Source of the DNA: a virus
Lineage: Duplodnaviria > Heunggongvirae > Uroviricota > Caudoviricetes
Reading direction: 5' to 3' (one strand)
Virus record (IMG/VR): IMGVR_UViG_3300011772_000022
Span: 1-16,258 of that record
DNA length: 16,258 bases
Made by a program: the position numbers and the translations under genes. Every line of letters begins with the position of its first letter. Within the stretch, counting starts at the first letter, position 1. The notes under the pieces are model-generated. The model was given only the letters and a program-made list of their open reading frames with translations, was not told the DNA's origin and ran no database searches. This document shows, one piece after another, positions 1-14,837 of this stretch.

Positions 1-223
1 AATTGTCCTCTTCCCATCGTCCTAAGGAAAGTGTGGAGTCCAGAATGACATGTTTATCGTCCATAAATTCCGTTGTACGGTGGATTGCATCAATTTCTTG
101 CTGCTGATATCGATGTCCAAGGCTTGCATAAACAAGTTTTGGGTTACAGTCGAATGTATCTCGTAAGTAGAAGTAAGCAATATATGAATCTAGTCCACCT
201 GAGTAAAGTAAAACATCAACCAT
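1..223 (-). CDS. queC: 7-cyano-7-deazaguanine (preQ0) synthase QueC-like PP-loop ATPase, 5' part only (runs off the left edge; not in ORF track)
   Basis: Manual translation from ATG at 223: MVDVLLYSGGLDSYIAYFYLRDTFDCNPKLVYASLGHRYQQQEIDAIHRTTEFMDDKHVILDSTLSLGRWEEDN..., open to position 1. PP-loop SGGLDS at the N-terminus; RBS-like GTAGGTGA upstream; overlaps the stop of 216..881; same cluster as queD and queE. Confidence 0.8.
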   Translation of the reverse strand, partial: MVDVLLYSGGLDSYIAYFYLRDTFDCNPKLVYASLGHRYQQQEIDAIHRTTEFMDDKHVILDSTLSLGRWEEDN

Positions 224-881
224 TCTGTTCACCTACCCAAGTATCCGGAACATCTGCTAAAATCTCTCGCACGTCTTCAATTCCACTCGGGAATCTAACT
301 GGATTGTTTGATGATAATGCTTCCCGTGACAGTTGACGAACCGCTTCTGTCAGGACACGTTTTTCATTATGTTGCTCATTAATCGTATCTTGATAAGATT
401 TGATATCATCTTCCGCTACCGCCCATCGACGTTTTAGATACGTAAGAGTCTCCTGCATTCCAGAAACAACGTCAACTGCTTCCTTATATTTGGATTCATA
501 ATGGTCTTTTAGATTCGACATCTTCGTTAGGTCCATATCTAGCTTACCCTTAGCCGTTTCAAGCGCAACCGCTTTGGCTTCTAAGTCCATGAAATGACCA
601 TGTAGCTTCTGGTATTCTGATTGAGCCTCTTCCTTTTCTCGTTTCTCCTTGTTCGTACTGCGTATAAATTCATCTACATCAGCATATAGCTTCTGATATT
701 CTGCTTGAGACGCCTCTTTTTCTTTCTTTTCCTTATTGTAGTCAGCTTCCCACTCATCGATATGTTGGTGTGCTTCCTCTAATGATGCCATAAGTTGAAC
801 ACATAACTGTTCAGGTGTCATATTCGAATACGCCAATCGTTTACGCATTTCCTGATAATATTTATTTTCGCTATTACTCAT
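216..881 (-). CDS. Hypothetical long coiled-coil protein (221 aa)
   Basis: E/K/Q-rich heptad pattern. Start reassigned from 914 to ATG 881, which has AAGGAGGAG at 888-896. Confidence 0.8.
   Translation of the reverse strand: MSNSENKYYQEMRKRLAYSNMTPEQLCVQLMASLEEAHQHIDEWEADYNKEKKEKEASQAEYQKLYADVDEFIRSTNKEKREKEEAQSEYQKLHGHFMDLEAKAVALETAKGKLDMDLTKMSNLKDHYESKYKEAVDVVSGMQETLTYLKRRWAVAEDDIKSYQDTINEQHNEKRVLTEAVRQLSREALSSNNPVRFPSGIEDVREILADVPDTWVGEQNG
603..737 (-). repeat. Imperfect internal duplication, 84-nt (28-aa) period
   Basis: 603-653 versus 687-737 on the plus strand (tagcttctgRtattctg.ttgag...), encoding NKEKREKEEAQSEYQKLH and NKEKKEKEASQAEYQKLY. Confidence 0.8.
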
Positions 882-905
882 CTTTGTCTCCTCCTTTGTT
901 ATAGG

Positions 906-932
906 AAAAGGCAACCGAATCGATTGCCTTTT
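906..932 (-). terminator. Probable intrinsic terminator (short U-tract, possibly leaky)
   Basis: Minus strand reads AAAAGGCAATCG-ATT-CGGTTGCCTTTT directly after the stop at 939. Confidence 0.65.
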
Positions 933-938
933 AGAATA

Positions 939-1172
939 TTATTTTAAGTCGCCTACATGTGATTCAGTGCCTACGATACCTTTTAAAGCATCTTTGGTAA
1001 TCTTCAGGTTCTTTTCAAGCAATTCACGTTGTTCTGCCATACCTTCTAATTCCATTTCAATTCGTTTTACACGTTCTTCTAATTGTGCACGGTCTACTGT
1101 TTCCTCTAAAACACGAGTTACCGTGAAGTGTGTTTTCTCTTTGTTTGGGCGAATGCTTACGTTGTCTCTCAT
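939..1172 (-). CDS. Hypothetical small coiled-coil protein (77 aa)
   Basis: AAGGAGGA RBS at about 1181-1188; TAATG stop/start overlap with the upstream gene. Confidence 0.8.
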   Translation of the reverse strand: MRDNVSIRPNKEKTHFTVTRVLEETVDRAQLEERVKRIEMELEGMAEQRELLEKNLKITKDALKGIVGTESHVGDLK

Positions 1173-1507
1173 TATTGTTGTCCTCCTTGTAATTGACTCA
1201 TCATTTTTTGTGCCATTGCAGCCTGAACTTCTTTTACGATTTCTTCACGCTCAAAGCGTTTACCAGTGTCTTGCATTAATTTTGACATTGCAGCAGCGTT
1301 TAACTCTTGCGCCACTTTCTCTGGGAATACTTCTTTTGCATCAATTACCTTGATGTCTTGTCCATTCAGACCGACTAATACAAATGCACCTAGTAATGCT
1401 TCGTATTGCGGTTCTCCTTCTTGTGGAGCATCATTTGCAGGTTCGTTTGGTCCTGTTGGGTCTTGCACCTTTGTTTCCTCTTGTTTTAAATCTTTTTCTT
1501 CTGCCAT
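1172..1507 (-). CDS. Hypothetical protein with acidic, Pro-rich N-terminus (111 aa)
   Basis: Start reassigned from 1675 to ATG 1507; AAGGAGGA overlaps the queE stop codon. Confidence 0.8.
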   Translation of the reverse strand: MAEEKDLKQEETKVQDPTGPNEPANDAPQEGEPQYEALLGAFVLVGLNGQDIKVIDAKEVFPEKVAQELNAAAMSKLMQDTGKRFEREEIVKEVQAAMAQKMMSQLQGGQQ

Positions 1508-1520
1508 TGTTGTTTCCTCC

Positions 1521-2264
1521 TTAACGAATTCCGTATAATTTGTGTACCTGTGGGATGAATCGAATGTCGTAATGACGTTCATCCATATAATGATGAGCAA
1601 AAGCCGTTCTGATAATGTCCGGCAGCTCTGTATAATTGTTAGCTGATTCTTCAGGTTGGAAGATGATTGGAACATACCTTGCTCCTTCTCCCGCCTTTTT
1701 GATTAATCCCGCAACCTCAACTGCATCCTCGATATGAGAGATGACAAATTTTAGTTGTAGAACACCTATTGGCATTCGATTAATCCATTTCGTCAGCATG
1801 TTCGGATTATAAGCAGGATTTCCTGAGCTTTTTAGTTTAGGAGATACCGAGAATAGCTTCACTTCGTTTTTAAGCTCTCGTCTAGGTATGATAGTACCAT
1901 TCGTTTCAAAGGTCACACCGTCGATTACCGTTCTGCGACGAAGCCTATCAAGTAATACTGCTAAGTCGGTATGATTATGCAACAGTGGTTCCCCACCAGT
2001 GATAACCAAGTCTTTAATCCGATGCTCTTCCGCTAATAACTTAATTTTTGCTTCTAGTAAGGCTAATGACATCGATGTATAAATCCCTTCGTGATACAGG
2101 TTTTCATCCCAAGAATGAGCCGTATCACACCAGACACAAGCAAGATTGCATCCGTATAAGCGAAGGAAGATTGTTTTACGTCCTATATCAGAGCCTTCTC
2201 CCTGAATTGTAGGAAATAGCTCCATGACTCTAAAAGGTTCGCCTGATTTATGTGGTTGTTTCAT
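1521..2264 (-). CDS. queE: 7-carboxy-7-deazaguanine synthase QueE (radical SAM)
   Basis: ELFPTIQGEG, CNLACVWC (CxxxCxxC), ITGGEP, ETNGT, SVSPK and C-terminal PQVHK motifs. Start reassigned to ATG 2264 (ATGA overlap, GAAGGTG RBS). Confidence 0.92.
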   Translation of the reverse strand: MKQPHKSGEPFRVMELFPTIQGEGSDIGRKTIFLRLYGCNLACVWCDTAHSWDENLYHEGIYTSMSLALLEAKIKLLAEEHRIKDLVITGGEPLLHNHTDLAVLLDRLRRRTVIDGVTFETNGTIIPRRELKNEVKLFSVSPKLKSSGNPAYNPNMLTKWINRMPIGVLQLKFVISHIEDAVEVAGLIKKAGEGARYVPIIFQPEESANNYTELPDIIRTAFAHHYMDERHYDIRFIPQVHKLYGIR

Positions 2265-2443
2265 CTTTTGCACCTTCTTTTTCTTTCTTCCCATGAGTAA
2301 ATGATTACGATTATGAAGAAGAAAATCATTGTTGGTAACCAGAGTATGTGCATAATAACTTTCATTGGTAACCCCCAAGAGTCAGGTTGGGAAAAGAAGA
2401 ACCCGACTCCAAGGTATACAAGAGCTATTATGACCCACATCAT
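2261..2443 (-). CDS. Small two-transmembrane-helix protein with basic C-terminus
   Basis: Two hydrophobic stretches followed by ERKRRCKR; ATGA-coupled to both neighbours. Confidence 0.7.
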   Translation of the reverse strand: MMWVIIALVYLGVGFFFSQPDSWGLPMKVIMHILWLPTMIFFFIIVIIYSWEERKRRCKR

Positions 2444-2859
2444 TTCTCTTCTTGCTCTTCCTTAATGGCATTTACTTCAGCCATTGGTGGGACTGTGCAA
2501 TGTACTTCATCTACTTCCAGTAGGTTAATTGGCTTTCTCACAATCTCATTTGCAGCAATATCCTCTGCTAACAAGATTGCTAGGAAGGCAAGTTCATTGA
2601 TTTGGTCCATAGCCTGCTCGAACATTTCAAATTTGTCGCCCGCTTCGTCGAGAGAACGAAGTCGTTTAGCTTTTACAAGATTACGGTCTACGAATGTAGA
2701 GTAACGGTAATCTCTCCAAGCATCCTTGTATTTACCATTACGGTCGAGAAAAATACTTTCCGCAGCAGCTAATACGATGTCCCGCTTTGTTTTTGTGTCT
2801 TCACCATTTGCGATTGATACTCCTAGTGTTGCCACCTGATTTTTCGTAAATGAATCCAT
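2440..2859 (-). CDS. DUF1599 / nucleotide-modification-associated domain 1 (Nmad1)-like all-alpha protein
   Basis: IFLDRNGKYKDAWR...STFVDRNLVKAKRLRSL...DQINELAFLAI resembles my recollection of the DUF1599 pattern (F.KK..DYG.AWR...S..D.I.IKA.R.R.L...E...IINY..MALI). RBS AAGGAGG. Not HMM-verified. Confidence 0.6.
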   Translation of the reverse strand: MDSFTKNQVATLGVSIANGEDTKTKRDIVLAAAESIFLDRNGKYKDAWRDYRYSTFVDRNLVKAKRLRSLDEAGDKFEMFEQAMDQINELAFLAILLAEDIAANEIVRKPINLLEVDEVHCTVPPMAEVNAIKEEQEEK

Positions 2860-2875
2860 TGTCTAATTCCTCCTT

Positions 2876-3502
2876 CTAATCTATGTTTACAAGAATTACT
2901 GCCGACCCTTTAACCTGAAAATCTCTTCCATCAACGGAAACCCATGCATGTTTTTCATTAGGAACCCAATATGTAGAAATTCCTTCTCGACGTTTTAGTT
3001 CCTCTGTTAAGTCAGCCGTTGAGTAAAGTGATAAAGGGTTGTCCACCTTTGCAGCAGGAAGACTCTTTTGATGAATCTCCGCATAACAAGTCGGAGTTTC
3101 ATAGAGTCTAACGAATTCAAGTAGGACGTTTTTCGGAAGATGTTTTTCCATCTCCTTATAAATCCAGTATACCAAGTTCTCAGCACTGGTGTTCATGTTA
3201 GGTAAACTTTCGTTTAAGTATCTGTGGTCCAATCTTGGCTCTAAATGTTCTTTCCATATCTTCTTAATGTCCCCGAAGTCAATTACGATTCCAATTGGGT
3301 TCGGGATACCCACCACACCGAATTGTACTCTGTAAAGGTGTCCATGCATGTTCTTACATTTACCCTCGTATGCATGAAGATGGTGGGCTGCATCGAATGT
3401 GAATTCTTTTACTACTAATGTAGGAACCACATGATATCGTAGTTCGTCTGGTTGAATATCCTCTCCATAAACCTGTGCTTTGTCTGGTACTTTGTAATCC
3501 AT
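2876..3502 (-). CDS. queD: 6-carboxy-5,6,7,8-tetrahydropterin synthase QueD with extra ~50-aa C-terminal domain
   Basis: KEFTFDAAHHL, CKNMHGH, IDFGDIK, LDHRYLN, SAENL and ETPTCYAE motifs; the ORF continues about 64 aa beyond the normal QueD end. Confidence 0.92.
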   Translation of the reverse strand: MDYKVPDKAQVYGEDIQPDELRYHVVPTLVVKEFTFDAAHHLHAYEGKCKNMHGHLYRVQFGVVGIPNPIGIVIDFGDIKKIWKEHLEPRLDHRYLNESLPNMNTSAENLVYWIYKEMEKHLPKNVLLEFVRLYETPTCYAEIHQKSLPAAKVDNPLSLYSTADLTEELKRREGISTYWVPNEKHAWVSVDGRDFQVKGSAVILVNID

Positions 3503-3521
3503 TCTCTTCAGCCCCTTTTAA

Positions 3522-3791
3522 TTAGTTCACACGGATTTTAAATAAAATGCTTGTGCGGTCTTCCCCACTAATCTTTGTATCTTCAAAGCCCGGTACTAAC
3601 ACAAGGTCTTTTCCGGCAGGTGCCACAAATCCTCGTGCGATTGCAGTTGCTTTAACAGTCTGGTTAACTGCGCCTGCTCCAATAGCAGTCAGCTCAACTG
3701 TGTAACCTTCTTCGATGTTCTTCGCAATAGCTCCCGCTACAGAAGATGGATTGCTTGTAGATTTTACTTTTAGACGTTTGATTTCGCTCAT
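3522..3791 (-). CDS. spoVS: Stage V sporulation protein S homologue
   Basis: SNPSSVAGAIA, AIGAGAVNQTVKATAIARGFVAPAG and GEDRT closely match SpoVS along its full ~89 aa. Confidence 0.95.
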   Translation of the reverse strand: MSEIKRLKVKSTSNPSSVAGAIAKNIEEGYTVELTAIGAGAVNQTVKATAIARGFVAPAGKDLVLVPGFEDTKISGEDRTSILFKIRVN

Positions 3792-4393
3792 TTTGATTTC
3801 CCCTTTTTCTTTGGTTTTTTAAGTTTTATTTTCAATACCGTTGCCACCGCTTCTTTTTGGTGGTCTGGTAGAGATTCAATATCGAGTTCCCCTTGCTTTA
3901 CTTTCCAGACAGTCTCACAAAGGAGAGCCATACAGAAAGCATCACATTGGTCATTCTGTGCTAAAATGAAGTTCGTTCCATATCGGGCATTTACTTCTTC
4001 AACAACCCAAACCTTTTTCCATGATGTTTTTGCTCTACCTTCTGGTACAGGTGGTGTGTCTCCACGTCCACAAGCAAATTTCTTTACTGTCTTAGGTGAT
4101 GGTTTGAAGTATGGAATACCTAGTTGGTGTAGCTTATAAAGCACTACGCCGTGAATTTCTGCAAGGGTTTCTCTTCCAAAAGGGGAATCATAAGCATAAT
4201 GTTCGATAGCCACGTATTGTACCTTGTTATCTTCGATAGCCGCCAGTATTGTCTCCACAATCTTGCGTACACTTACAATCCATTCATCTTCTTTAGAGGT
4301 AGTAATGGTTCCAATGGATATTGGTTTGTAGTTTTTATTGACTGATACCCCGCTTTTTCTTAGTGAAATATCAATACCCATATATGTTGCCAT
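3788..4393 (-). CDS. RuvC-like Holliday junction resolvase
   Basis: MGIDIS (catalytic Asp), VAIE, LAEIHGVV, SPKTVKKFACGRG and NDQCDA match the RuvC acidic-residue arrangement. Confidence 0.8.
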   Translation of the reverse strand: MATYMGIDISLRKSGVSVNKNYKPISIGTITTSKEDEWIVSVRKIVETILAAIEDNKVQYVAIEHYAYDSPFGRETLAEIHGVVLYKLHQLGIPYFKPSPKTVKKFACGRGDTPPVPEGRAKTSWKKVWVVEEVNARYGTNFILAQNDQCDAFCMALLCETVWKVKQGELDIESLPDHQKEAVATVLKIKLKKPKKKGKSK

Positions 4394-4406
4394 CTAATCT
4401 CTCCTA

Positions 4407-4751
4407 TTAGCCCTGAGGCTGAAGTAACTCCTCCGGATATACATTACCGGACTCCCATAGATGAATCGGGAGTACCAGTTGTATATCATGCGGTGGATGG
4501 TGGATTTCTCTCGAATAATCATTGAATCGGCGCCCAGTACAGTGATAAAACGTATTGTCATCCGTATCCTTGATTACAACGAATTTCAATCCTTTATGGA
4601 GAAGACCTTCAATTACTTTCCTTTCAATCCCCCAACCGTTTTCGTTTACAAAGAAATGTTTATTACTGCTTCTTTCAGAGTAGAAAATTCCTTCTTTGAA
4701 AGTACCAATCTGACGAAGTTTGTCGTGGTCTTTAACATATACCTTGCTCAT
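4407..4751 (-). CDS. Hypothetical phage protein (114 aa)
   Basis: ATGA-coupled, full-length ORF; KHFF..NGWGI..QLVLP pattern, function unknown. Confidence 0.8.
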   Translation of the reverse strand: MSKVYVKDHDKLRQIGTFKEGIFYSERSSNKHFFVNENGWGIERKVIEGLLHKGLKFVVIKDTDDNTFYHCTGRRFNDYSREIHHPPHDIQLVLPIHLWESGNVYPEELLQPQG

Positions 4752-5317
4752 CGTAAGTTGGTCCCACGATTTTCGAATTGTTGGAAGTTCGAACGTCTTG
4801 TAATCTCTCGTGATACGAGATTCAGGTTCTTCTCATACCCCTTTTGTAATGCTTCAGCTAAAACAAACGTCGCATGACATTGTGCATACCAGTTTTCCGC
4901 CTGAATGCATCGAGGGTCTTGTGTGACATATGCTTCTTGGAATTCTCGGTTTGGATATCGTTTCTTCGTTTCTGGGTCTGTTAGGTCGAGTTCAAGTGAG
5001 ACCTGAGCCAACGTGAAATCTCTTACCCTTTCAGCCGTGATACGGTCGATATCCATTTTAGCAACCAAGGTCCCATAGTATACTGCTAATCCAGTAACCA
5101 ATGAGTATAGTTGACCAAGTTCCTGTGGATGTAACATTGTAATATCAGCAGGCATTACGAATGCTCCGTCTCCATCCTGATTCCATAATGGGATTGGAGG
5201 CATTGCCGGGAAGCGCATCCCCTGTTGTATTAATTCTGCTTTCGCCTTTTCGGATTCGTGATATTCACCAATCTTTAGGTTTGTTTCCTCTTGTGTCTGT
5301 GCTTTAACTTCATCCAT
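4748..5317 (-). CDS. Hypothetical helical protein (189 aa); possibly a UvsY-like recombination mediator
   Basis: GAGGTG RBS; long amphipathic helices. The UvsY idea rests only on helical pattern and context. Confidence 0.75.
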   Translation of the reverse strand: MDEVKAQTQEETNLKIGEYHESEKAKAELIQQGMRFPAMPPIPLWNQDGDGAFVMPADITMLHPQELGQLYSLVTGLAVYYGTLVAKMDIDRITAERVRDFTLAQVSLELDLTDPETKKRYPNREFQEAYVTQDPRCIQAENWYAQCHATFVLAEALQKGYEKNLNLVSREITRRSNFQQFENRGTNLR

Positions 5318-5318
5318 G

Positions 5319-6254
5319 TCATTTCACCTCGTCTAAGTTTTGTCTACCATCTACTTCAGCAAGCGTTAAATTATCTTTCGAGTAACATAGTGTTCTCCAA
5401 GGACAGTATTTACACTCAGCAGATTTCTTGTCATTAACAATACGTTCTGGTAGATTACCTGAATCGACAATTGCTTCCGTCGTATCCAGTTTAATGAATT
5501 GTTTATCTAAAAACGGTTGGAATAATGAGATGTTATAGTTTTTCATTTCCTGATTGTTCTTGTTTCCATAATGGAAGATACCACCGGGAATTTGTAAACC
5601 ATACATATAAATATTCGCCTGATACAGATGCTTGTCGAGAGGTTGATTCAATTTCTCGAAGTAATCTCTCGTCGCTTTCATCTCTTCAGTCCAGTTAGGT
5701 TCAGCCGCTTTAATTGTTTTGATTTCTATTACTCTCATTCCAGTAGGTGCAGTGTTATCCACTACAACACCATCGGCGTGACCTGCAATTGGTTTTCGGT
5801 CTCCTCGTAAGATTCGGACCGGAACCTCTTCATATTTGAGATTTTCCCAGATATAAAGTTTCACGTCACAATTTGGGCATCGTCTCGGTGAAGCGTTAAC
5901 CATGTCGAACCATTTATGTTCACATCGTTGACATTTCCATTTCCCGAGCAGCTTTCCCATATCCCAATAGTACCCTTGAATTTGATAACCGAAGTGATGT
6001 CCTACATCGAACAATCTACGAAGTTGCGCTCGTATCTTTTCATCGTTCGACTTTGGAGTTTTGACATGACTAAAAGCCAATCTTCGAAGACAATCCGTGG
6101 TGGATATCTCAGATGGGTGCCACACATTCTTCTCCCTATCATTCTCTTGGTCTAGGAATGGTTTCCCCTGCAATTTTAGTAGGTACCTATCCATTTCATG
6201 CCCTAGATTCTGATTGGGACTTTTTAACGTTTTCAGTAAGTCTCCTAACGCCAT
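5319..6254 (-). CDS. Solo Cas4-like PD-(D/E)XK exonuclease with Fe-S cysteines and an inserted CxxC-CxxC motif
   Basis: HPSE..C55, GHAD161G, E177IK, QANIY and C-terminal CKYCPWRTLC (1+3 Cys of the Cas4/AddB type). Confidence 0.85.
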   Translation of the reverse strand: MALGDLLKTLKSPNQNLGHEMDRYLLKLQGKPFLDQENDREKNVWHPSEISTTDCLRRLAFSHVKTPKSNDEKIRAQLRRLFDVGHHFGYQIQGYYWDMGKLLGKWKCQRCEHKWFDMVNASPRRCPNCDVKLYIWENLKYEEVPVRILRGDRKPIAGHADGVVVDNTAPTGMRVIEIKTIKAAEPNWTEEMKATRDYFEKLNQPLDKHLYQANIYMYGLQIPGGIFHYGNKNNQEMKNYNISLFQPFLDKQFIKLDTTEAIVDSGNLPERIVNDKKSAECKYCPWRTLCYSKDNLTLAEVDGRQNLDEVK

Positions 6255-6291
6255 TTTTCTCCCGCCCTTTCTGCTATGTCTATTTAATAAG

Positions 6292-6349
6292 AGTGGGGGT
6301 CGGTGGAACCCCCGGTAGAGGACGTTATATAGGCAGTATAACTCCCACT
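6292..6349 (-). other. Structured, GC-rich 5' leader element (candidate cis-regulatory RNA)
   Basis: Pairings AGTGGG/CCCACT, GTTATA/TATAAC and CGG/CCG, plus a competing GGGGGT/ACCCCC hairpin, between the promoter and the ATG at 6254. Confidence 0.5.
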
Positions 6350-6358
6350 GATATACCT

Positions 6359-6388
6359 ATTATAACAGATATAATACCATCGTGACAA
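6359..6388 (-). promoter_or_regulatory. SigmaA-type promoter for the Cas4-like...que operon
   Basis: TTGTCA (6388-6383), 18-nt spacer, extended -10 TG-T-TATAAT (6364-6359). Confidence 0.75.
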
Positions 6389-6415
6389 TTTGTTTCTCAC
6401 TATTCAGGTAATTAT

Positions 6416-6907
6416 TTATAGCTTCGTCATCTCAAGGAAAACAAGGTCATATGGATGTTTCTCATCCTTAGGTTGCATCCCGATTGTTCTACTTGCAAAT
6501 AACCTTTCTGGCTCTTCAAAGAATGTATCCCCTTCAAATTCACCATCGATAACGGTTACATAATACGTATCAATGAAAGGTTCGAATTGCTTATAGATTT
6601 CGGCTCCACCTATAACCCACATTTCTTCTAGGTACATTCGGTGTGTAGATAAGATTTCATCTACGGAATGCATTACCATAGCATCTCCTGCATCGTAATT
6701 CTCATCCCGAGTCAGAACTATATTCAATCTATCCTTCAGTGGTCCATTTGGTAACGATTCGAATGTCTTTCTCCCCATTACCACAATCCCAGTATCTTGT
6801 GTCGTCATCTTGTTGAAATGTTTCATATCGGCAGGAAGATGACCCCAAGGCATCTTCCCATCCTTCCCAATAACACCATTAACGGACATCGCTACAATCG
6901 CTCTCAT
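6416..6907 (-). CDS. folA: Dihydrofolate reductase
   Basis: IGKDGKMPW, DMKHF, VMGRKTFESL, PLKDRLNIVLTR and VIGGAEIY; TAATG-coupled to thyA. Confidence 0.95.
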   Translation of the reverse strand: MRAIVAMSVNGVIGKDGKMPWGHLPADMKHFNKMTTQDTGIVVMGRKTFESLPNGPLKDRLNIVLTRDENYDAGDAMVMHSVDEILSTHRMYLEEMWVIGGAEIYKQFEPFIDTYYVTVIDGEFEGDTFFEEPERLFASRTIGMQPKDEKHPYDLVFLEMTKL

Positions 6908-7755
6908 TACTCTGCCACCGGAATGACTATTTTACCCATTGGATTGTACTCCACCACTTTGAAATGCTCTACTCTAAAATCGTAGAAGTTTTTCACGTCT
7001 GGGTCGATTATCAATTGCGGTAATGATTGGTGTTGGAAGCCTACGTAACGACGTTTCATTTCTGCTGCTGCATCTAGGTGACGGTCATAAATGTGTAGGT
7101 CACCGATGTCATGAATCAGTTTTCCGACTCGTAAACCATTTACCTGCGCCACCATTGCCTGTAATACTGCATATTGAGCAACATTCCAGTTATTCGCAGT
7201 AATCAAATCAGAAGAGCGTTGCATTAATTTTAGATGTAATTCCCCACCTAATACTCTCCAATGAGTACCAAAAGCACAAGGTCGTAAGTTCATGTGTGGA
7301 ATATCTTCTGGTATAAAGATATTTGTCATGATTCCTCTATCCCAAGGCTTCTTACTGATATCGTACAGTACCTTATCAAACTGGTCCATCGTTCCTTCAG
7401 CGTAGTCAATTGGCTTTGCAATCTGGTAACCGTAGGCTCTTCCGATTGAACCTCTTTCATCCGCCCATTGATTCCATATCTTACTGTTTAAATCATTTAC
7501 GTTATTAGATTTTCGTTGGAAAATCCATAGAATCTCATCCACAAGTGCTTCGAAGTTCATGTCACGTAATTCAGTAAGAGGGAAAGCCTGTGATGGTCGG
7601 TATTCATTCTGATATCCGAAAATGCTCTTATAATGAGCGTCCTCTCCGTCTTTCCATTTCGTACGGACCTTCATCGTAGGCTCATTATAACTCCATATAC
7701 CATCTTTCAGTACCTTATCAATCATCTGTATTTGTATTAGGTCTGTATATGCCAT
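6907..7755 (-). CDS. thyA: Thymidylate synthase (ThyA type)
   Basis: IGRAYGYQ, catalytic RPC, QRSSD, NVAQY (dUMP-specifying Asn) and DLHIY. Confidence 0.95.
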   Translation of the reverse strand: MAYTDLIQIQMIDKVLKDGIWSYNEPTMKVRTKWKDGEDAHYKSIFGYQNEYRPSQAFPLTELRDMNFEALVDEILWIFQRKSNNVNDLNSKIWNQWADERGSIGRAYGYQIAKPIDYAEGTMDQFDKVLYDISKKPWDRGIMTNIFIPEDIPHMNLRPCAFGTHWRVLGGELHLKLMQRSSDLITANNWNVAQYAVLQAMVAQVNGLRVGKLIHDIGDLHIYDRHLDAAAEMKRRYVGFQHQSLPQLIIDPDVKNFYDFRVEHFKVVEYNPMGKIVIPVAE

Positions 7756-8015
7756 TACTCAGCTTCCTCCTCTAATTCTTCAACTTTTGATTCTAATATT
7801 TCTACCTGACCAGTCAATTCATCTATATAATTACCTAAAGATAATTTATCAGCCAGTAGTTGTTGTACCTGTGTGTCAACCTCTCCGGCTAACCCTTCAA
7901 GGGCATTAATCATAGTTAGGCTTAAATCCTCTTTATGCTCATCGATGAATGATTCAATCAGGGATGCGACCTCAGTTTCTCTTCCAATAGAAACACCTAT
8001 CAGACTAATCGCCAC
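7755..8015 (-). CDS. Hypothetical acidic coiled-coil protein (86 aa)
   Basis: GTG start with AGGGGGAG RBS; fills the gap between the Nudix gene and thyA. Confidence 0.75.
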   Translation of the reverse strand: MAISLIGVSIGRETEVASLIESFIDEHKEDLSLTMINALEGLAGEVDTQVQQLLADKLSLGNYIDELTGQVEILESKVEELEEEAE

Positions 8016-8016
8016 T

Positions 8017-8694
8017 CTAGTTCTCCCCCTTCAGTTCTTCTTCAGTAAGTTCGTCTAATACTTCCGCCGCATATTGTGACCATGATTCTAGACGGTCGAA
8101 TATTTTACCTTGCTGCAATTCGATTACATCCATCCATACGCCTTCTAGTGTATCCGTTTCACGAACCTTAATTTCCGCTTCTTCTGGGAAGTACAGTTCA
8201 ATTAAGATACCGATGTGGACCTGACCAACCTCTGTTTCATCGTTGATAATCCCTTTTAGATTTACTTCAGGTGGAGCCGGAGTTGTAATTTCTAGCTCCT
8301 CTGTTAGTTCTCTCATATAGTTATGGATAAGTAAGTGTGAAAATTGAGGTTTCGTTTCCCCACCTTTAATCTCTAATGGGTTCATATGACCGCCAACACC
8401 AATGGATATTTTACCGTGCAGCTTTTCTTCTCCGCCGCCTTCTAATCGTTTATAAGCAAACACCTTGTTTCCTTTACGTACCACAAGGTAAGGGATTGGT
8501 TGTTTGTAATCCGTATTCTCTTCTGCATCTCCACGGCGCATCGATGTATAGTTAAGGGCAATGTTTCCTAAAATCTGTGATACTTTCCCTTGGTGAATTT
8601 CAGTTCCTACAAAGTGCAGGCTTTCTGTATGTGTTGCTCCTGCAAAAATCTTTTCTGTCTCTGCTACCACAATAATTTCATCATATTTACTCAT
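8017..8694 (-). CDS. YmaB-like (COG4112-type) Nudix hydrolase
   Basis: RRGDAEEN..YKQPIPY, KLHGKISIGVGGHMN, RELTEEL (Nudix box), GIIND..VGQVHIG and LESWSQ. Confidence 0.85.
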   Translation of the reverse strand: MSKYDEIIVVAETEKIFAGATHTESLHFVGTEIHQGKVSQILGNIALNYTSMRRGDAEENTDYKQPIPYLVVRKGNKVFAYKRLEGGGEEKLHGKISIGVGGHMNPLEIKGGETKPQFSHLLIHNYMRELTEELEITTPAPPEVNLKGIINDETEVGQVHIGILIELYFPEEAEIKVRETDTLEGVWMDVIELQQGKIFDRLESWSQYAAEVLDELTEEELKGEN

Positions 8695-8726
8695 TAGAAT
8701 CGCTCCTCGTTTATCTTTTATTTTGA

Positions 8727-8746
8727 GAGCCGCCCGAAGGCGCCCC
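8727..8746 (-). other. Intercistronic cUUCGg hairpin without a U-tract
   Basis: Minus strand GGGGCGCC-TTCG-GGCGGCTC just after the stop at 8749, followed by A-rich sequence. Confidence 0.6.
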
Positions 8747-8748
8747 GG

Positions 8749-8958
8749 TTATGCTTTTGGATTTAATAATGCATCTAGTGCCTCAGCATCTAATCCTAGA
8801 CGACTTACTAATTCAGCAGCAAGCACTTCTTCCTCTTTTAGTGTTCGTTTCGTAACCCCACGACTTGAATTCGTTTCTTTAGTTGAATTAATCGCATTCC
8901 AGTAAAAGGCTCCTAATAGTTCTTCCATCGTTGCTTTCTTTGCTTCTGTCTTATTCAT
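8749..8958 (-). CDS. Hypothetical protein (about 69 aa)
   Basis: AAGGGAG RBS is best spaced to ATG 8958 (8964 is the alternative); overlaps the upstream stop. Confidence 0.7.
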   Translation of the reverse strand: MNKTEAKKATMEELLGAFYWNAINSTKETNSSRGVTKRTLKEEEVLAAELVSRLGLDAEALDALLNPKA

Positions 8959-9199
8959 TGTCATCTTCTCCCTTCTTATAACGACCATCGAATGTTTCCC
9001 CATCTAGATAGCCGTCTTTGTCATAAGAAGTTACTCGAATCCAACCGTTTTTCTGGAAGGTTCTTACTTCCATTCCTACACCTTGTTGAAGTGCAACCGC
9101 AATCGTTTCACCTGCTGTGTTTTTCCCACCGTAAAGGTTAGATTCCGTCGTGTGGATAAAATTCTTAATGTCTTCTGTCTTTTCCAATGAAAGTATCAT
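8951..9199 (-). CDS. Hypothetical phage protein (82 aa)
   Basis: AGGAGGAG RBS before ATG 9199; NGWIRV...DG.LDGETF pattern, function unknown. Confidence 0.75.
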   Translation of the reverse strand: MILSLEKTEDIKNFIHTTESNLYGGKNTAGETIAVALQQGVGMEVRTFQKNGWIRVTSYDKDGYLDGETFDGRYKKGEDDNE

Positions 9200-9223
9200 G
9201 TGTATCTCCTCCTGTATCAAAAG

Positions 9224-9262
9224 TATAAGGTTAAAGGATATGTGTCATCCTCTAACCTTATA
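9224..9262 (-). terminator. 16-bp hairpin downstream of nrdF (terminator or processing site)
   Basis: TATAAGGTTAGAGGAT-GACACAT-ATCCTTTAACCTTATA pairs fully on the minus strand (one G-U), followed by CTTTT. Confidence 0.55.
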
Positions 9263-9288
9263 GTATCTTACCCTATGCAACTAGTGAA

Positions 9289-10269
9289 TTAGAATTGGAA
9301 ACCTTCGAAAGCGGCATCGTCTAGCTTTTCAACCTTACCTGCTTTTACATACCCATTTCCCTTTTGAGAAAAGAAGTCATGGTTATCTGTTTCCGTGCTC
9401 AGTCCTTGTTTTACAATCGGATTGATTTCGACTCCTTCATACATCTCTTCAAACCCAAGGTTCATCAAGGCTTTATTTGCGTTATACTTCAGGAAATTGT
9501 TAACTGGTTCTACAAGCCCAATTTCCCCGTAGATTTCATCTGTATAGCGCATCTCGTTTCGCATAAGGTCCTGAATCAGTGCTTGAACCCACATCTTCAT
9601 CTTCTTCTGCACATCAGGAGAGAATGAATTGTAAAGTTCTTGCGCTCGTAACCCGACAAAAATACCGTGGATGCTTTCGTCACGAATTATCAACTTGATA
9701 ATCTCACCACTATTTGTCATGCGACCTTGCCCTTTTAGGTATAAAGGATAGAAGAAACCGCTATAGAAAAGGTATGTCTCTAAACAAACGGAGGCAACCA
9801 TTGCTTTGTATCGTTGTTCCGGCGTTACAGTTGGTTGGAACAAGTTATAATACAATCCACCAATTCGCTTCGCTTTATAATCTAGATATTCGTTACTTTC
9901 GACCCAATTAAATGTTTCGTCGATAGTTTCCAAGTCATCTAGTGAAGTAAAGATATACGAATAGGATTTAGCGTGTACTTCCTCCATTGCTCCCATGAAT
10001 GCGAATACGGCTTTTGCCTGTAAGTTCGGCTCATGTAACAAGATTAGTGGCATACCTTCACCACCCTGTTTCGTATCTAAGAATGTTAAGCCCCCAAGCA
10101 CACGTCTGTATGCCTTTTTCTCTGCGGGTGACATCTTCTCAGCCCATGTGATTTTGTCACCTTCTAATGAAATCTCTTCTTCTGTCCAGAACTGTTGTTG
10201 GTTCTGTTTCCAGAACATTAACGAGTAGTCGTCTTCTGGTTTGTTCCAGTTTACCGCCTTAACACCCAT
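9289..10269 (-). CDS. nrdF: Class Ib ribonucleotide reductase beta subunit
   Basis: WNKPED, FW..EEI, LTFLDTKQG, EEVHAKSY (radical Tyr), LETYLFYSGF, RDESIHG and HDFFSQKGNGY. Confidence 0.96.
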   Translation of the reverse strand: MGVKAVNWNKPEDDYSLMFWKQNQQQFWTEEEISLEGDKITWAEKMSPAEKKAYRRVLGGLTFLDTKQGGEGMPLILLHEPNLQAKAVFAFMGAMEEVHAKSYSYIFTSLDDLETIDETFNWVESNEYLDYKAKRIGGLYYNLFQPTVTPEQRYKAMVASVCLETYLFYSGFFYPLYLKGQGRMTNSGEIIKLIIRDESIHGIFVGLRAQELYNSFSPDVQKKMKMWVQALIQDLMRNEMRYTDEIYGEIGLVEPVNNFLKYNANKALMNLGFEEMYEGVEINPIVKQGLSTETDNHDFFSQKGNGYVKAGKVEKLDDAAFEGFQF

Positions 10270-10290
10270 ATTGTATCTTCCTCTCTGTCT

Positions 10291-12378
10291 CTAAATGCTG
10301 CAAGCGATGCAGTCTTCGATGCCTTGCTTTCTAGTTCGTGTATAATACAAGGATTTCAACCCTTTACCTGCCGCATAAATGTAATGACTCGCAAGTTCTT
10401 TTGTAGAAATGTCACTGTTTACGAATAGAATCGTAGAAATACCTTGGTCAACATGCTCCTGAATCTCCGCCACAAGGTCTAGCCATTTGCGTTGGTCCAT
10501 ATCATATGCCGTCTTCATGTAGTACATGTAAGTGTCACGGTTTAAGAATGGCATCGGGAAGTACGTTGTTGCATTTGCGTACGTTCTTGTTTCGATTTGG
10601 CTTACAATCGGTTGTATTGAAGCCGTAGCATTTTGTAGATAGCTAATGCTTTGCGTAGGAGCAATTGCCAAACGATAAGCATTAAACAATCCATATTGTT
10701 TTACTTGACCACGTAACCATTTCCACGCCTGCTTTGTTGGAACCTCGATTCCTTCAAATAGATTTTGTACCTTTTCCGTTTGCGGTCGGTAATCAGTAGC
10801 CACATATTTATCGAAGTATTCACCTGTTGCATAATCCGATAATTCGAATCCTTTATACGTCTCTTCTTTCTCTCGAGCAATCTCCATACTCTTTTGTAGA
10901 GAATAGAAGTTCATCATCATGAAGAATGTACGAACAAAGTCTTTCGCTTCTTCTGATTCAAATGCAATGTAGTTTTTAGCTAAAAAGCCATGTAAGTTCA
11001 TAGCGCCTAGTCCTACAGAGTGTAATTCATCATTTGCTTTCTTCACACCCGGAGCATTTGCAACCTTTGTTTGTGTCGATACAGAAGTTAATGCTTCCAT
11101 ACCTGCAAATACCGCCTCTTTGATTTGTTTATTCTCCATTACATTCACGATGTTTAGGGAACCAAGGTTACATGAAATGTCACGACGGATTTCATCTTCG
11201 ATACCATAATCGTTAATTGTCGAAGTTTCTTGCAGTTGCATTATCTCGGTACATAAATTAGACATTTTTACTGTCCCAAGGCGATGATTTGCATGTTTAC
11301 GGTTTGTATTCGTTTTGTTGAATAGGTATGGATATCCGGATTCTAATTGAATAGCAGCAACCTTCACCAACATATCACGAGCCGTCACATCCAATTTCTT
11401 TTTCTTCACCATTGGATTTTGTACCAGTTCATCATACATAAGGTCTAGGTCCATATCATCAAGGTGTACGCCATAAGCCTGATATACAGTTAATGGAGCG
11501 AATACATAATAATCTTCGTTCTCCGCACATAACTTGTAAAATCGATTCGGGATAACAAGACCAATTGAAAGTGATTGGATACGAGACTTCTCATCGGCAT
11601 TTATTTTCTTTGTATCGAGGTATTCGATAATATCCCAGTGGAAGATGTTAAGGTAAGTAGCCCCGGCACCTTTTCGTTGACCAAGTTGATTAGCATATGC
11701 GAATGAATCTTCTAAAAGTTTCATAACCGGAACAACGCCTGAAGCAGCATTCTCGATTCCTTTAATCGATTCACCACGACCACGTAATTTTCCTAGATTA
11801 AGAGCCACGCCTCCGCCAATTTTAGATAGCTGCATTGCAGTACCGATGTTGTAATTGATTGAGTTTAATGAGTCATCCATCTCTGTTAAGAAACACGAAA
11901 CCATTTCTCCGCGTCTAGCTCTTCCCGCATTTAAGAATGTTGGTGTTGCAGGTTGGTAGTTTTGTGTTACGATTTGCTCAATTAGAGTTTTCGCTTTCTT
12001 ATGGACTCCCTCTGATAAGTATAGTGCCACGATGAGCGCTCGGTCTTCGAAATCTTCAATAATAAATTTCTTGTCATTCGTACGTAATGCATAATCGTTA
12101 TAGAATTTCTGTGCCGCCATGAAGGATTGGAATTCAAATCCGAATGAGTGAGCGAATTCATATAATCCTACGATTTGGTCTTCCGTAAATTGCTCAAATA
12201 CATCATAGTAGAAGTCATTAGCTACTAAGAAGCGGAAGCGCTCTATGACTGACGAAAACTTCATGCGTTGTTTCGAAATCTCCTCCATATATAACGCTAA
12301 GGCTTCTTTATCCTTTTCTAGGTCAAAGAAACCATCCTTCATATCCTTTATCTCTGCATTCTTCTCAATATATTTCAC
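10291..12378 (-). CDS. nrdE: Class Ib ribonucleotide reductase alpha subunit
   Basis: QPATPTFLNAG, SCFL, SNLCTE, SCNLGSLN, AIAPT, KSLYYTRT and C-terminal CIAC. Start is most likely GTG 12378 (GTGA overlap with nrdI); the track's 12390 is the alternative. Confidence 0.96.
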   Translation of the reverse strand: MKYIEKNAEIKDMKDGFFDLEKDKEALALYMEEISKQRMKFSSVIERFRFLVANDFYYDVFEQFTEDQIVGLYEFAHSFGFEFQSFMAAQKFYNDYALRTNDKKFIIEDFEDRALIVALYLSEGVHKKAKTLIEQIVTQNYQPATPTFLNAGRARRGEMVSCFLTEMDDSLNSINYNIGTAMQLSKIGGGVALNLGKLRGRGESIKGIENAASGVVPVMKLLEDSFAYANQLGQRKGAGATYLNIFHWDIIEYLDTKKINADEKSRIQSLSIGLVIPNRFYKLCAENEDYYVFAPLTVYQAYGVHLDDMDLDLMYDELVQNPMVKKKKLDVTARDMLVKVAAIQLESGYPYLFNKTNTNRKHANHRLGTVKMSNLCTEIMQLQETSTINDYGIEDEIRRDISCNLGSLNIVNVMENKQIKEAVFAGMEALTSVSTQTKVANAPGVKKANDELHSVGLGAMNLHGFLAKNYIAFESEEAKDFVRTFFMMMNFYSLQKSMEIAREKEETYKGFELSDYATGEYFDKYVATDYRPQTEKVQNLFEGIEVPTKQAWKWLRGQVKQYGLFNAYRLAIAPTQSISYLQNATASIQPIVSQIETRTYANATTYFPMPFLNRDTYMYYMKTAYDMDQRKWLDLVAEIQEHVDQGISTILFVNSDISTKELASHYIYAAGKGLKSLYYTRTRKQGIEDCIACSI

Positions 12379-12728
12379 CTTTCCCCACACCTCTCCACGA
12401 ATATCTCCACATCCATCGATGTCCCCGATAATTCAAATTTTGATATTACATCCACACTATAAAGAGCAGCTATTTTATCCGCTGCTACACCAAAGTTATC
12501 GCCCCAATTGCGATTTCCACTCGAAGCGACCCCTTGTAAATACTTGTTGTTAGATTCTAAAAATTCTAATGTTGTTTCAGGTACCTGCCCAAACCCTGTC
12601 GTATATGTTACGAGAATGAATGGTTCCGTCACCAAGAGACCATCGGAAACCTTTACCAGTGGAATACCTTGCAGCTTATCTATAAATCTCTGAACGTTAC
12701 CCGTCCGAGAATCATATGCGACAAGCAT
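12375..12728 (-). CDS. nrdI: Flavodoxin-like NrdI
   Basis: YDSRTGNVQRF, TYTTGFGQVP, GVASSGNRNWG and KFELSGT. Confidence 0.96.
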   Translation of the reverse strand: MLVAYDSRTGNVQRFIDKLQGIPLVKVSDGLLVTEPFILVTYTTGFGQVPETTLEFLESNNKYLQGVASSGNRNWGDNFGVAADKIAALYSVDVISKFELSGTSMDVEIFVERCGER

Positions 12729-12774
12729 ACGCCCTCACTTCCTCCCCCTTATATTCAGTTTTGCCTAGACTTTA

Positions 12775-12783
12775 ATTATACCA
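12775..12783 (-). promoter_or_regulatory. Extended -10 promoter element upstream of nrdI
   Basis: TGGTATAAT in the only sizeable gap before nrdI; no good -35 element. Confidence 0.6.
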
Positions 12784-12820
12784 TTTCTTGGACAGGTGTA
12801 ACTATTTTAAATACGAAAAT

Positions 12821-13219
12821 TTAGACATCTCTCTTTAGCATATCTAGTATTTCGAGCCAAGTGTCTTCTTGGACTACTACAAGATGTAGGTCCTCCCCAT
12901 CGATGTCTAGTTCGATTTGCATTGCAGGTTGCTTATTCTCTGTCTTGATAGCCTTCTGCTTTATCTCTGCCCATAAGTCAGTTGTTAGTCGAAATCCCTT
13001 GTTGGTAGTCTGTTTCTGCTCATATAGGAAAGCGGTTAGGTCATCAACCAATGACCCGCCCGCCTTTACGTCACCTTTACTACTCCATACGGCTCCACTA
13101 CCTGCTTGAGTTCGACCGCCAACTTTGCCTGCCCAACGTTCTTCCTGCTTTTGTGACCTTTTTCTTCTCGTTTTCGCAGTTGGTTCATCATCAGCAAAGT
13201 TAAACACTCTTCGTGCCAT
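12821..13219 (-). CDS. PD-(D/E)XK nuclease, phage Holliday-junction-resolvase-like (132 aa)
   Basis: QEERWA..VGG...GSGA...KGDV...EQKQT; AGGAGGA RBS before ATG 13219. Confidence 0.7.
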   Translation of the reverse strand: MARRVFNFADDEPTAKTRRKRSQKQEERWAGKVGGRTQAGSGAVWSSKGDVKAGGSLVDDLTAFLYEQKQTTNKGFRLTTDLWAEIKQKAIKTENKQPAMQIELDIDGEDLHLVVVQEDTWLEILDMLKRDV

Positions 13220-13229
13220 AGTAGTCCTC

Positions 13230-13622
13230 CTAGTATTCAGTCGATGCAAGCATACCCGGAAGTTCTCCGATATACTCCATAAACTCTGCATAGTTTGTTT
13301 TTGTTTTAGTTATGTCATGGTCTCCTGCCTTTTCTCGTTTGAACATACGACATACCTCTAACATAGGTTCAGGTAACCCTTCTGTTGTAGTCCAGAAAGT
13401 TTCGTGTAGTGGACATTCTCTAAAATGGTCAGGGTCGATTGCTTCCTCTCGGCTCAGACCTGTTTGCTCCATATACCACTTCAGACCTTCTTCTAAGTCG
13501 TTTGCAGCAATCCAATCGTATTCATTCAGTTTCCATGCCCTTGCCGTCGTAATATCTACTCCATAATGGTTTACTCGCTTCATACTGCTAATATCCTGCC
13601 CTTGAATTGGCATCCTCATCAT
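13230..13622 (-). CDS. Hypothetical phage protein
   Basis: KLNEYDWIAA...KWY pattern; start uncertain (ATG at 13622, 13619 or 13613). Confidence 0.7.
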   Translation of the reverse strand: MMRMPIQGQDISSMKRVNHYGVDITTARAWKLNEYDWIAANDLEEGLKWYMEQTGLSREEAIDPDHFRECPLHETFWTTTEGLPEPMLEVCRMFKREKAGDHDITKTKTNYAEFMEYIGELPGMLASTEY

Positions 13623-13966
13623 CTCCAATCAGTTAATGTGTGTAACGCTACAGGCATCCCTACAATATAAGTGGCGAAATCTGCCTTTACCAACCAGTCG
13701 TGAACCTCGTTATATAAGTCAATAAGTTCTACAATCTCAGCGACTTTGTGAGGCATCCCTTCTGAATCAGAACCTCTGTTGAGTGGAATACCGATGATGT
13801 GATAATTACTATCCGGTCCATCGTATACCAGAGTAAATTGTGGATTCTTCTCCTTTAGAAGTTCCACCTTCTTCTCTAATTCATCAAACCATTCGTCTTG
13901 GTCTTCTGCCACCTTATATGCAGGTGTTACATCTAATCCCATAATTGCGTAGTGTGTCAATATCAT
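13619..13966 (-). CDS. Hypothetical protein (115 aa)
   Basis: ATGA-coupled ORF in the operon. Confidence 0.75.
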   Translation of the reverse strand: MILTHYAIMGLDVTPAYKVAEDQDEWFDELEKKVELLKEKNPQFTLVYDGPDSNYHIIGIPLNRGSDSEGMPHKVAEIVELIDLYNEVHDWLVKADFATYIVGMPVALHTLTDWR

Positions 13967-14196
13967 GTTACGTTCCCCGCTCTCGTAAAGAATTTAAGCA
14001 TTGTCGTATAAATGTCCTGCACGTCTTCCATCTCTTGACCATTTGCCATGAATTTACCGTCAGCCGTAATCCGCATAACGACTTTACCTTGTACTTCAAA
14101 CGTGATATCACTCGTTCTTTCCAATCGTTCTGATAATTTAACGGTAGTAGAATTAGTTAAGGTCAGTTTGTTTTTCAAAGTCCTTCCACTCCCCAT
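13963..14196 (-). CDS. Hypothetical protein (about 71-77 aa)
   Basis: Overlaps the 3' end of the abrB-like gene; alternative TTG start at 14178. Confidence 0.6.
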   Translation of the reverse strand: MGSGRTLKNKLTLTNSTTVKLSERLERTSDITFEVQGKVVMRITADGKFMANGQEMEDVQDIYTTMLKFFTRAGNVT

Positions 14197-14452
14197 TTAC
14201 TAAGTTTACGATGTCTTTAACCGCCTGTTTAGAAATACGGCGCCCTTTATATTCAATGTATTGACCTTCATTAATACCAGTAAAGATACAATGCTCTACA
14301 TAAGGGCGAATTGTGATTGATTCACCGTTACATGTGATTTCCATTGGTTCTGGTTTCTCAGCACTAAATCCGATGGATTTTAGCATATCCTGCGGTACGT
14401 TGATACGTCCGATTCTGTCTGGTGTTCTTACGATTCCTGTTGTATGTTTCAT
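14153..14452 (-). CDS. abrB: AbrB-family transition-state regulator homologue
   Basis: TGIVRTPDRIGRINVP aligns with AbrB TGIVRKVDELGRVVIP; C-terminal CIFTG...YKGRRISK resembles the AbrB C-terminal domain. Confidence 0.8.
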   Translation of the reverse strand: MKHTTGIVRTPDRIGRINVPQDMLKSIGFSAEKPEPMEITCNGESITIRPYVEHCIFTGINEGQYIEYKGRRISKQAVKDIVNLVNGEWKDFEKQTDLN

Positions 14453-14835
14453 TCTGCTAGTTCCTCCGCATTCTTAAATTTGTCTACTAAATATTCAACT
14501 ACTTCGCTATATTGACCTTCACCGAAGATTGTTTTTGTCTCCCACATTTCAGTAGAAACCGCCTGATTCGGAAGGTATGTTCCTTCATATATGACGATAC
14601 TATCTGAAGTTCTATACTGAGCAAACAAGAAACCGTGAGTGTAGTTCTTTCCAGTTTCCGATTCGAAGTATTCATGTACGATACCATAACCTTGTTCTCG
14701 CCCATTTTGGTAGCATTCTAATCTGAATTCGTGATTAGTTTCTTTTGAGTTAAGTTGTTGGAAATCATAGTCCGCTTCTAACATTGCTACAATAACTTCT
14801 GCTACTGCTAGTGAATAATGCCTTCTAATACCCAT
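14449..14835 (-). CDS. Hypothetical phage protein (128 aa)
   Basis: ATGA-coupled; CYQNGREQGY and FAQYRTSDSIVIY patterns, function unknown. Confidence 0.75.
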   Translation of the reverse strand: MGIRRHYSLAVAEVIVAMLEADYDFQQLNSKETNHEFRLECYQNGREQGYGIVHEYFESETGKNYTHGFLFAQYRTSDSIVIYEGTYLPNQAVSTEMWETKTIFGEGQYSEVVEYLVDKFKNAEELAE

Positions 14836-14837
14836 CT

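Follow-up and report, generated by a model that had tools for sequence, protein, structure and literature searches.

A phage QueD enzyme carrying a C-terminal BC1881-family module, a predicted self-pairing domain found mainly on HTH regulators

Introduction

According to PMC6884629, QueD, QueE and QueC together with DpdA, without an amidotransferase, are the minimal set of proteins that gives dPreQ0 in the DNA of the phages tested. Phage QueD would carry out the second step of preQ0 synthesis in this pathway, in which dihydroneopterin triphosphate is converted to CPH4, and thereby feed DpdA-type 7-deazaguanine DNA modification. The signature of the enzyme is CxxxHGH, in which the Cys is needed for activity and the two His residues bind zinc; by the motif definition in PMC10516641, it sets QueD apart from DpdL and other T-fold paralogues. 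Fusions of phage 7-deazaguanine enzymes are known, namely Gat-QueC and the long DpdA fusions, and the consulted portions of PMC6884629 and PMC10516641 report none that involves QueD. The queD::BC1881 gene described here resembles those fusions in that a phage enzyme of the preQ0/DpdA pathway has acquired a further domain; however, the domain gained in Gat-QueC and in the long DpdA fusions is catalytic and alters the product, whereas the BC1881 tail is without a catalytic signature.

The nearest cultured phage is BCD7 (Becedseptimavirus), whose QueD (YP_007005879.1) is 56% identical to the fusion protein over residues 1-146; chromosomal QueD proteins of the Bacillales are 60-64% identical to it over the same residues. 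The BCD7 and bacterial proteins share the N-terminal extension and the CxxxHGH motif with the fusion, and BCD7 has a similar gene order (SpoVS, then QueD, QueE, QueC and DpdA). However, these proteins are 153-169 amino acids (aa) long, end in ...YAEARREWMxx and lack the BC1881 module that the fusion has. The BCD7 QueD (162 aa, no tail) is followed directly by QueE, whereas DUF1599 intervenes in the fusion phage, and BCD7 encodes FolE, for which a PF01227 search of the fusion phage genome gave no match.

The BC1881 family (NF033495, PHROG 5765) is represented by a "hypothetical equivalog" model of ~45-aa proteins, and our literature search on it found only unrelated papers. The model describes stand-alone proteins of ~45-90 aa, whereas the module of the fusion forms the tail of an enzyme of 150 aa. 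The tail shares with the family its terminal position and its final Asp, as seen in PBC4, 250, phiFN37 and 43 IMG/VR loci, and it belongs to a longer BC1881 subtype with an extra hairpin of ~9 residues.

In SinR/SinI of Bacillus subtilis, a small multimerization domain is common to an HTH repressor and its stand-alone antagonist. BC1881 is comparable as a small, predicted self-associating module that occurs both on HTH regulators and as a mini-protein; however, this is a functional analogy only, with no sequence or fold relationship found, the SinI domain being helical and BC1881 consisting of a helix and four strands.

Here we analyzed a stretch of 16,258 nucleotides (the window; positions 1 to 16,258 of the 106,765-bp IMG/VR record IMGVR_UViG_3300011772_000022, Caudoviricetes), in which an earlier note, made from the sequence alone, had reported a QueD fused to a small extra domain.

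Results

A BC1881-family module follows QueD in the same frame

The earlier note placed the end of QueD near residue 144 and had the frame run on. This was correct: the PTPS domain covers residues 30-144, and no stop occurs through residue 208. The span given for the extra domain, 2876-3034, was exact, since base 3034 belongs to residue 157 (the L of LSLYST) and the stop codon lies at 2876-2878. The QueD part and the tail, ...NPLSLYSTADLTEELKRREG...VKGSAVILVNID, share one frame with no stop between them, and the reading order is HQKSLPAAKVDNP, then LSLYSTADLTEELKRREGISTYWVPNEKHAWVSVDGRDFQVKGSAVILVNID, then the stop (Table 1).

The resemblance of the tail to BC1881 proteins, which the earlier note had proposed, was confirmed by a family search. 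NF033495 (phage_BC1881; cut-off, 27 bits) matched residues 160-208 over all 45 model positions, with 39.1 bits (E value, 4e-10) for the full protein and 43 bits (E value, 3e-11) for the tail alone. The same residues were matched by phrog_5765 (function unknown), and no Pfam model covers the tail. When the entire 106,765-bp record was searched in six frames, a single BC1881 match came up, at 2879-3025 on the minus strand (42 bits), without an internal stop. All eight family invariants (T162, E168, L169, R172, G174, G199, A201 and D208) are kept in the fusion protein, and the module ends at residue 208 of 208. Because the module forms the tail of a 208-aa enzyme, and is not the small stand-alone protein to which NF033495 refers, the gene is filed as a QueD carrying a BC1881-type domain and not as a BC1881 family protein.

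Table 1. Features of the fusion gene and of the neighboring cluster, in window coordinates unless stated otherwise
Feature	Coordinates	Strand	Basis or remark
queD::BC1881 fusion gene	2876..3502	-	208 codons + stop; stop codon 2876-2878; ATG start
QueD/PTPS T-fold core, residues 30-144	3071..3415	-	PF01242, TIGR03367, alignment to solved QueD chains
QueD signature C49-x3-H53-G54-H55 (catalytic Cys, two zinc-binding His)	3338..3358	-	Read from sequence
Linker, residues 145-156, HQKSLPAAKVDNP	3035..3070	-	Alignments; stands where relatives have RREWMxx
RBS-like AAAGGTGG within linker	3043..3050	-	Judged a chance occurrence
BC1881-family C-terminal module, residues 157-208	2879..3034	-	NF033495, phrog_5765, AF2; terminal invariant Asp208
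Diverged patch versus sister phage, codons 181-208	2879..2962	-	Codon-by-codon comparison
DUF1599 (nucleotide-modification-associated domain 1), 139 aa	2440..2859	-	PF07659, 25.3 bits vs cut-off 25
QueE-like radical-SAM enzyme, ORF as listed	1521..2378	-	PF04055, PF13353; phrog_2076 QueE-like, E 1e-43
queC N-terminal 77 codons	2..232	-	phrog_1550 QueC-like
queC C-terminal part	106328-106678 of 106,765-bp record	-	PF06508

A sister phage carries the same fusion

A search with the full protein returned 1971 QueD relatives, and among the best 120 only one (P0002; 208 aa, 84% identical) covers the whole length; the remaining relatives among these 120 are 153-179 aa long and match the QueD part only. 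P0002 is encoded identically on the GenBank metagenome contigs MTEU01003794.1 (107,890 bp) and MTEV01010111.1, on both of which the gene order is as in the window, and its source is referred to here as the sister phage. The relative thus shows one open reading frame and not two, which establishes a true in-frame fusion, and the uninterrupted frame of 208 codons is present in three assemblies, those of the IMG/VR record and the two contigs.

The two fusion genes show ~10% nucleotide divergence over codons 1-180. Over codons 181-208, 44 of the 84 nucleotides differ, and of the codon changes there 20 are nonsynonymous and 3 synonymous. The genes align without indels, and near-identity is regained past the stop. 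Despite this 52%-diverged patch, the frame and all eight family invariants are kept in both proteins. A 60-nucleotide sliding comparison showed about four mosaic patches across 8 kb of the cluster, this one included, and the patch at codons 181-208 covers the beta-strands of the dimer interface predicted below. Taken together, the three assemblies, the kept frame and the kept invariants make a missed stop codon very unlikely and indicate that the tail is under selection. The survey for other QueD fusions that had been proposed yielded this one sister phage protein and nothing more: junction-specific patterns run against IMG/VR and the JGI metagenomes returned the known sister contig alone. Within the collections searched, the fusion is genuine, rare and lineage specific, being found in two sister phages only.

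Stand-alone relatives end in ...FVRLYETPTSYAEARREWMxx, with R145 and W147 nearly invariant, and stop 3-5 residues past RREWM. In the alignments, both fusion proteins read ...FVRLYETPTCYAEIHQKSLPAAKVDNP... where the relatives have the RREW ending, which indicates that the event swapped out the last ~8 residues of QueD and was not a simple loss of the stop codon.

The earlier note also drew attention to an RBS-like AAAGGTGG just before the domain, with no start codon at proper spacing, and suggested a fusion scar. The motif is present as described, and no in-frame start codon follows it in either phage; 7 nucleotides downstream, the window has the codon TTA and the sister phage CTA. The scar itself was not supported: the coding strand of the window contains AAGGTGG 4 times, 3 of these copies being elsewhere and inside open reading frames, and 15 of 200 shuffles reach 4 matches. 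With a count at chance level and TTA or CTA at RBS spacing, we take the motif as neither a fusion scar nor an internal start.

The QueD core is predicted to be active and lies in a dPreQ0-type cluster

PF01242 (PTPS) matched residues 30-144 with an E value of 7e-34 (116.8 bits against a cut-off of 22.4), and the TIGR03367 QueD equivalog model scored 92.6 bits against a cut-off of 89.25. The CxxxHGH motif is present as C49, H53, G54 and H55, columns that are invariant in 39 relatives, and the fusion protein keeps all 44 of the 44 columns that are invariant among them. The core aligns to the solved QueD chains 2OBA, 3QN0 and 4NTM, and the solved relatives (2OBA, 3QN0 and 4NTK/4NTM) have at least six chains per deposited entry; the pLDDT of the core in the full-length AF2 model is ~80-94. 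From the intact CxxxHGH motif and the 44 kept columns, we read the core as a QueD (6-carboxytetrahydropterin synthase) that is predicted to be active and catalytically intact.

In the direction of transcription, and all on the minus strand, the fusion gene is preceded by genes for RecA-like, NrdI/E/F, ThyA, DHFR, Cas4-like exonuclease, RuvC-like and SpoVS proteins, and is followed by DUF1599, QueE, small open reading frames, a 232-aa orphan and the start of QueC. QueE, QueC and DpdA are co-oriented in one run with the fusion queD. A DpdA homologue was found in the record by phmmer with the protein of the sister phage; a PF01702 (TGT) search of the genome gave no match. In the sister phage, QueC is followed by DpdA (phrog_887; E value, 2e-41) and then by DUF1653. 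In the IMG/VR record, queC spans the junction of the record ends, and the DpdA-like gene is likewise at the far end. The ends repeat each other over ~96 nucleotides (window 1-100 versus record 106669-106765), only the outermost 1-3 bases differing; these overlapping ends suggest that the 106,765-bp record is probably a complete, circularly assembled genome, though it is classed as linear and 70% complete. The fusion gene sits in a phage 7-deazaguanine DNA-modification cluster of the dPreQ0 type.

Several neighboring genes have features of their own. The DUF1599 gene, whose AGGAGG RBS comes directly after the stop of the fusion gene, is inserted between queD and queE and is missing from the BCD7 cluster; owing to an indel-rich patch at ~2472-2571, its product is 165 aa long in the sister phage and 139 aa here. 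The listed QueE open reading frame (285 aa, TTG start) overlaps a listed 167-aa open reading frame downstream of it (1172-1675, minus strand) by ~150 nucleotides. The sister phage has a 247-aa QueE followed by a 72-aa and a 104-aa gene, and these calls suggest that the true starts in 1172-1675 and 1521-2378 (minus strand) are probably internal and that re-annotation is needed. The 232-aa open reading frame before queC (216-914, minus strand) had no match in Pfam or PHROG and is the gene most diverged from the sister phage, with an identity of 0.2-0.55 and indels at ~530-880; a role in the modification cluster, as an accessory or specificity factor, is conceivable. A SpoVS homologue (3522-3791, minus strand; PF04232; E value, 1e-31) lies directly upstream of queD, and Bacillus phage BCD7 has a "sporulation protein" in the matching position, which together point to a spore-forming host of the Bacillota.

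BC1881 is a C-terminal module of many proteins, mainly HTH regulators

A single-sequence search with the 59-aa tail against 1.84 billion representatives gave only 3 other matches and was too insensitive, and a word-indexed search at near lengths gave no match. More sensitive routes were a tblastn search of phage records, an alignment-based scan and a profile search, in that order. With tblastn, BC1881 was located in two Bacillus phages (PBC4 and 250), in Fusobacterium phage phiFN37, where it is annotated as "BC1881 family protein", in Flavonifractor phage Chenonceau and in a phage of Acetoanaerobium, always among small early genes. The alignment-based scan of IMG/VR gave 43 loci with open reading frames of 46-93 aa and variable short N-terminal extensions; in all 43, the module comes last and the protein ends in Asp. 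Stand-alone BC1881 proteins of 46-60 aa exist.

The profile search for longer BC1881-domain proteins (at least 105 aa) gave at least 201 hits, of which 120 were listed and 109 were scanned for domains. All but one of the 120 listed proteins (119) stop exactly where the module does. Its commonest partner is an XRE/Cro-type HTH: ~19-25 of the 109 scanned proteins carry HTH DNA-binding domains, with HTH_3 in 19 and similar numbers for the related HTH_31, HTH_19 and HTH_26 models. Single cases among the 109 were LexA_DNA_bind, a CI-repressor HTH, a cell wall hydrolase domain and a sub-threshold HAD domain. BC1881 is a promiscuous, strictly C-terminal module, mainly on HTH regulators.

The HTH-BC1881 prophage proteins (e.g., P0131 and P0175) share with the fusion the module and its terminal position; however, their N-terminal partner binds DNA and belongs to the lysis-lysogeny switch, whereas that of the fusion is an enzyme of a nucleotide-modification cluster. 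The two HTH-BC1881 genes that were seen in context lie just past the integrase, CI-like repressor and Cro-like switch of prophages. No second BC1881 open reading frame, and hence no cognate pair of the SinI/SinR kind, was present at any locus examined.

The earlier note had proposed that the fusion links an orphan family to pterin or deazapurine synthesis. The survey speaks against such a link: among the 120 listed longer proteins, a PTPS partner occurs in 2 only, which are the two phage fusions (P0001 and P0002), and none of ~50 other BC1881 loci has queD, queE, queC, dpdA or DUF1599 within 4 kb. The absence of que neighbors at ~50 loci indicates that the BC1881 family as a whole has no link to deazapurine genes.

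Two further observations concern Chenonceau and its relatives. The C-terminal half of the 91-aa Chenonceau protein WAK79775.1 (locus L005, 3863-4138) is a BC1881 module, and the annotation "Lar-like restriction alleviation protein" is probably wrong for that half. In the IMG/VR loci of Chenonceau-type gut phages (L010-L037), near-identical modules are preceded by N-terminal extensions 20-45 residues long and of at least six unrelated kinds, including MTREEAVEIL..., MDLKDLIADV... and MTWEEAIKFL..., which looks like a cassette-like swap of the N-terminal part before a constant C-terminal module.

Models of the tail support self-pairing

An AF2 model of the tail, built on an 18-row alignment, consists of one helix at tail residues 13-24 and, after it, four strands; its mean pLDDT is 80.8. 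Searches with this model gave best values of E 0.27 (Foldseek, PDB), Z 2.6 (VIA-align wide) and E 0.35 (BFVD), a PDB sequence search with the tail gave no informative match, and the fold searches show neither a new fold nor a known one. When the short tails were co-aligned with QueD, MAFFT put them inside the QueD core, and the full-length fold was therefore built from QueD relatives only; its core is confident and its tail, with two sequences behind it, is poor. Because the tail is of low confidence there, the full-length model says nothing on where the tail lies on the QueD oligomer.

Prediction of two copies of the tail, from our own 18-row alignment, gave a symmetric homodimer with an ipSAE of 0.59 (best control, 0.00). 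Of 30 proteins solved as one-chain pairs, 20 attain this mark, against 1 of 23 that were solved as single chains, a calibration that is only rough here because the alignment was our own. Contact agreement across the two-copy runs was at least 96%, and partner pLDDT was at least 79. The predicted interface has ~125 contacts over 42 of the 59 residues; in it, the last strand pairs with the same strand of the partner (55:55 and 54:54), and strand 37-40 does likewise. Self-pairing of the last strand would account for the absence of any residue past the terminal Asp. The eight invariant residues all fall inside the interface (~0.07 by chance), which is weak support because the interface covers so much of the tail. 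Overall, modeling supports homodimerization of the BC1881 module.

Discussion

We have found that in two sister phages a QueD from a DNA-modification cluster bears a domain that is met elsewhere mostly at the C terminus of XRE/Cro-type HTH regulators, which would be those of temperate Bacillota phages, or alternatively stand-alone behind short variable N-terminal peptides. The reading that we favor, and to which we give an even chance, is that an active QueD gained a C-terminal self-pairing module, its own ending being replaced in the process, and that the module is a self-association clamp on QueD oligomers. In this phage lineage, a short linker and the BC1881 module stand in place of the QueD ending; the module, a C-terminus-only unit of ~50 residues made up of a helix and a beta-sheet, would form an intertwined symmetric homodimer. 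On QueD, the tail would most likely pair the C termini of subunits, as staples within the T-fold oligomer or as bridges between oligomers, and the paired tails might also compensate for the lost RREW ending. The consequence for the enzyme, as we infer it, is probably a changed oligomer assembly. The scaffold put forward in the earlier note survives in this narrower form, in that the tail is predicted to pair with itself; the general tie to the pathway that went with it does not.

Since the QueD of BCD7 has no tail, QueD enzymes in general can clearly function without one, and the fused tail may be no more than tolerated. It is possible, though to our minds doubtful, that recombination joined queD to a small BC1881 gene by accident, and that the two halves are simply co-expressed, with no benefit to QueD and with a tail that keeps its usual BC1881 activity or does nothing. 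The restriction of the fusion to two close relatives in all collections searched would fit such an accident, as would the lack of a tail in BCD7 and all bacterial relatives, the generally mosaic cluster and the distance of BC1881 genes from que genes at ~50 loci (4 kb); moreover, as the genome has no other BC1881 copy, the fused one may be the sole supply of its function. However, the frame and the invariants have been kept through a patch in which 44 of 84 nucleotides changed, which means that selection acts on the tail at least, and the loss of RREW at the junction suggests that the new tail took over from that ending or made up for it. The tail may help the enzyme or may merely be tolerated. 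That the fusion arose in assembly or sequencing, by a missed stop or a frameshift that merged two genes, is close to refuted and would be very surprising: nothing speaks for it except the prior that metagenomic contigs contain errors, and it is countered by the uninterrupted 208-codon frame in three independent assemblies and by an RBS-like motif that lacks an in-frame start codon in both phages.

Pairing might also be with other proteins. The tail could associate with other BC1881 proteins, for example the HTH-BC1881 proteins of prophages, so that QueD would have a second role as their antagonist, much as SinI acts on SinR, or would be recruited to them; we consider this unlikely. It would accord with the presence of the module on early-operon HTH regulators of prophages and in stand-alone proteins of 46-60 aa, and with the peak of tail divergence in the predicted interface strands, as diversifying pressure on pairing specificity would give. 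However, that patch is only one of several in the region, no examined locus has two BC1881 genes and hence no cognate pair was seen, and the SinI/SinR likeness is no more than an analogy. Slightly less probable still is a bolder proposal, in which the tail is a specificity-bearing pairing module that either builds a higher-order QueD body channeling preQ0 at the site of modification or captures the HTH-BC1881 regulators of prophages. If such capture were true, a metabolic enzyme would double as an anti-regulator, and if pairing were specific, the fast-diverging interface strands would reflect an arms race.

Annotation pipelines would call the gene a plain QueD and miss the tail, and those who express phage QueD for deazapurine work should note that this lineage carries an extra domain that is predicted to self-pair. 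A single fusion is also no ground for assigning BC1881 to pterin or deazapurine chemistry through guilt by association.

For the family itself, the partner met most often binds DNA and is of a type that requires a dimerization domain, and BC1881 looks like a general pairing module. From the survey presented here, it appears to be a C-terminal-only module of ~45-50 residues with an invariant final Asp, a predicted homodimer that mainly pairs HTH regulators of phages of the Bacillota and Fusobacteria. BC1881 (NF033495, PHROG 5765) thereby gets its first testable description based on architecture and modeling, which is a useful re-annotation and not a new kind of system.
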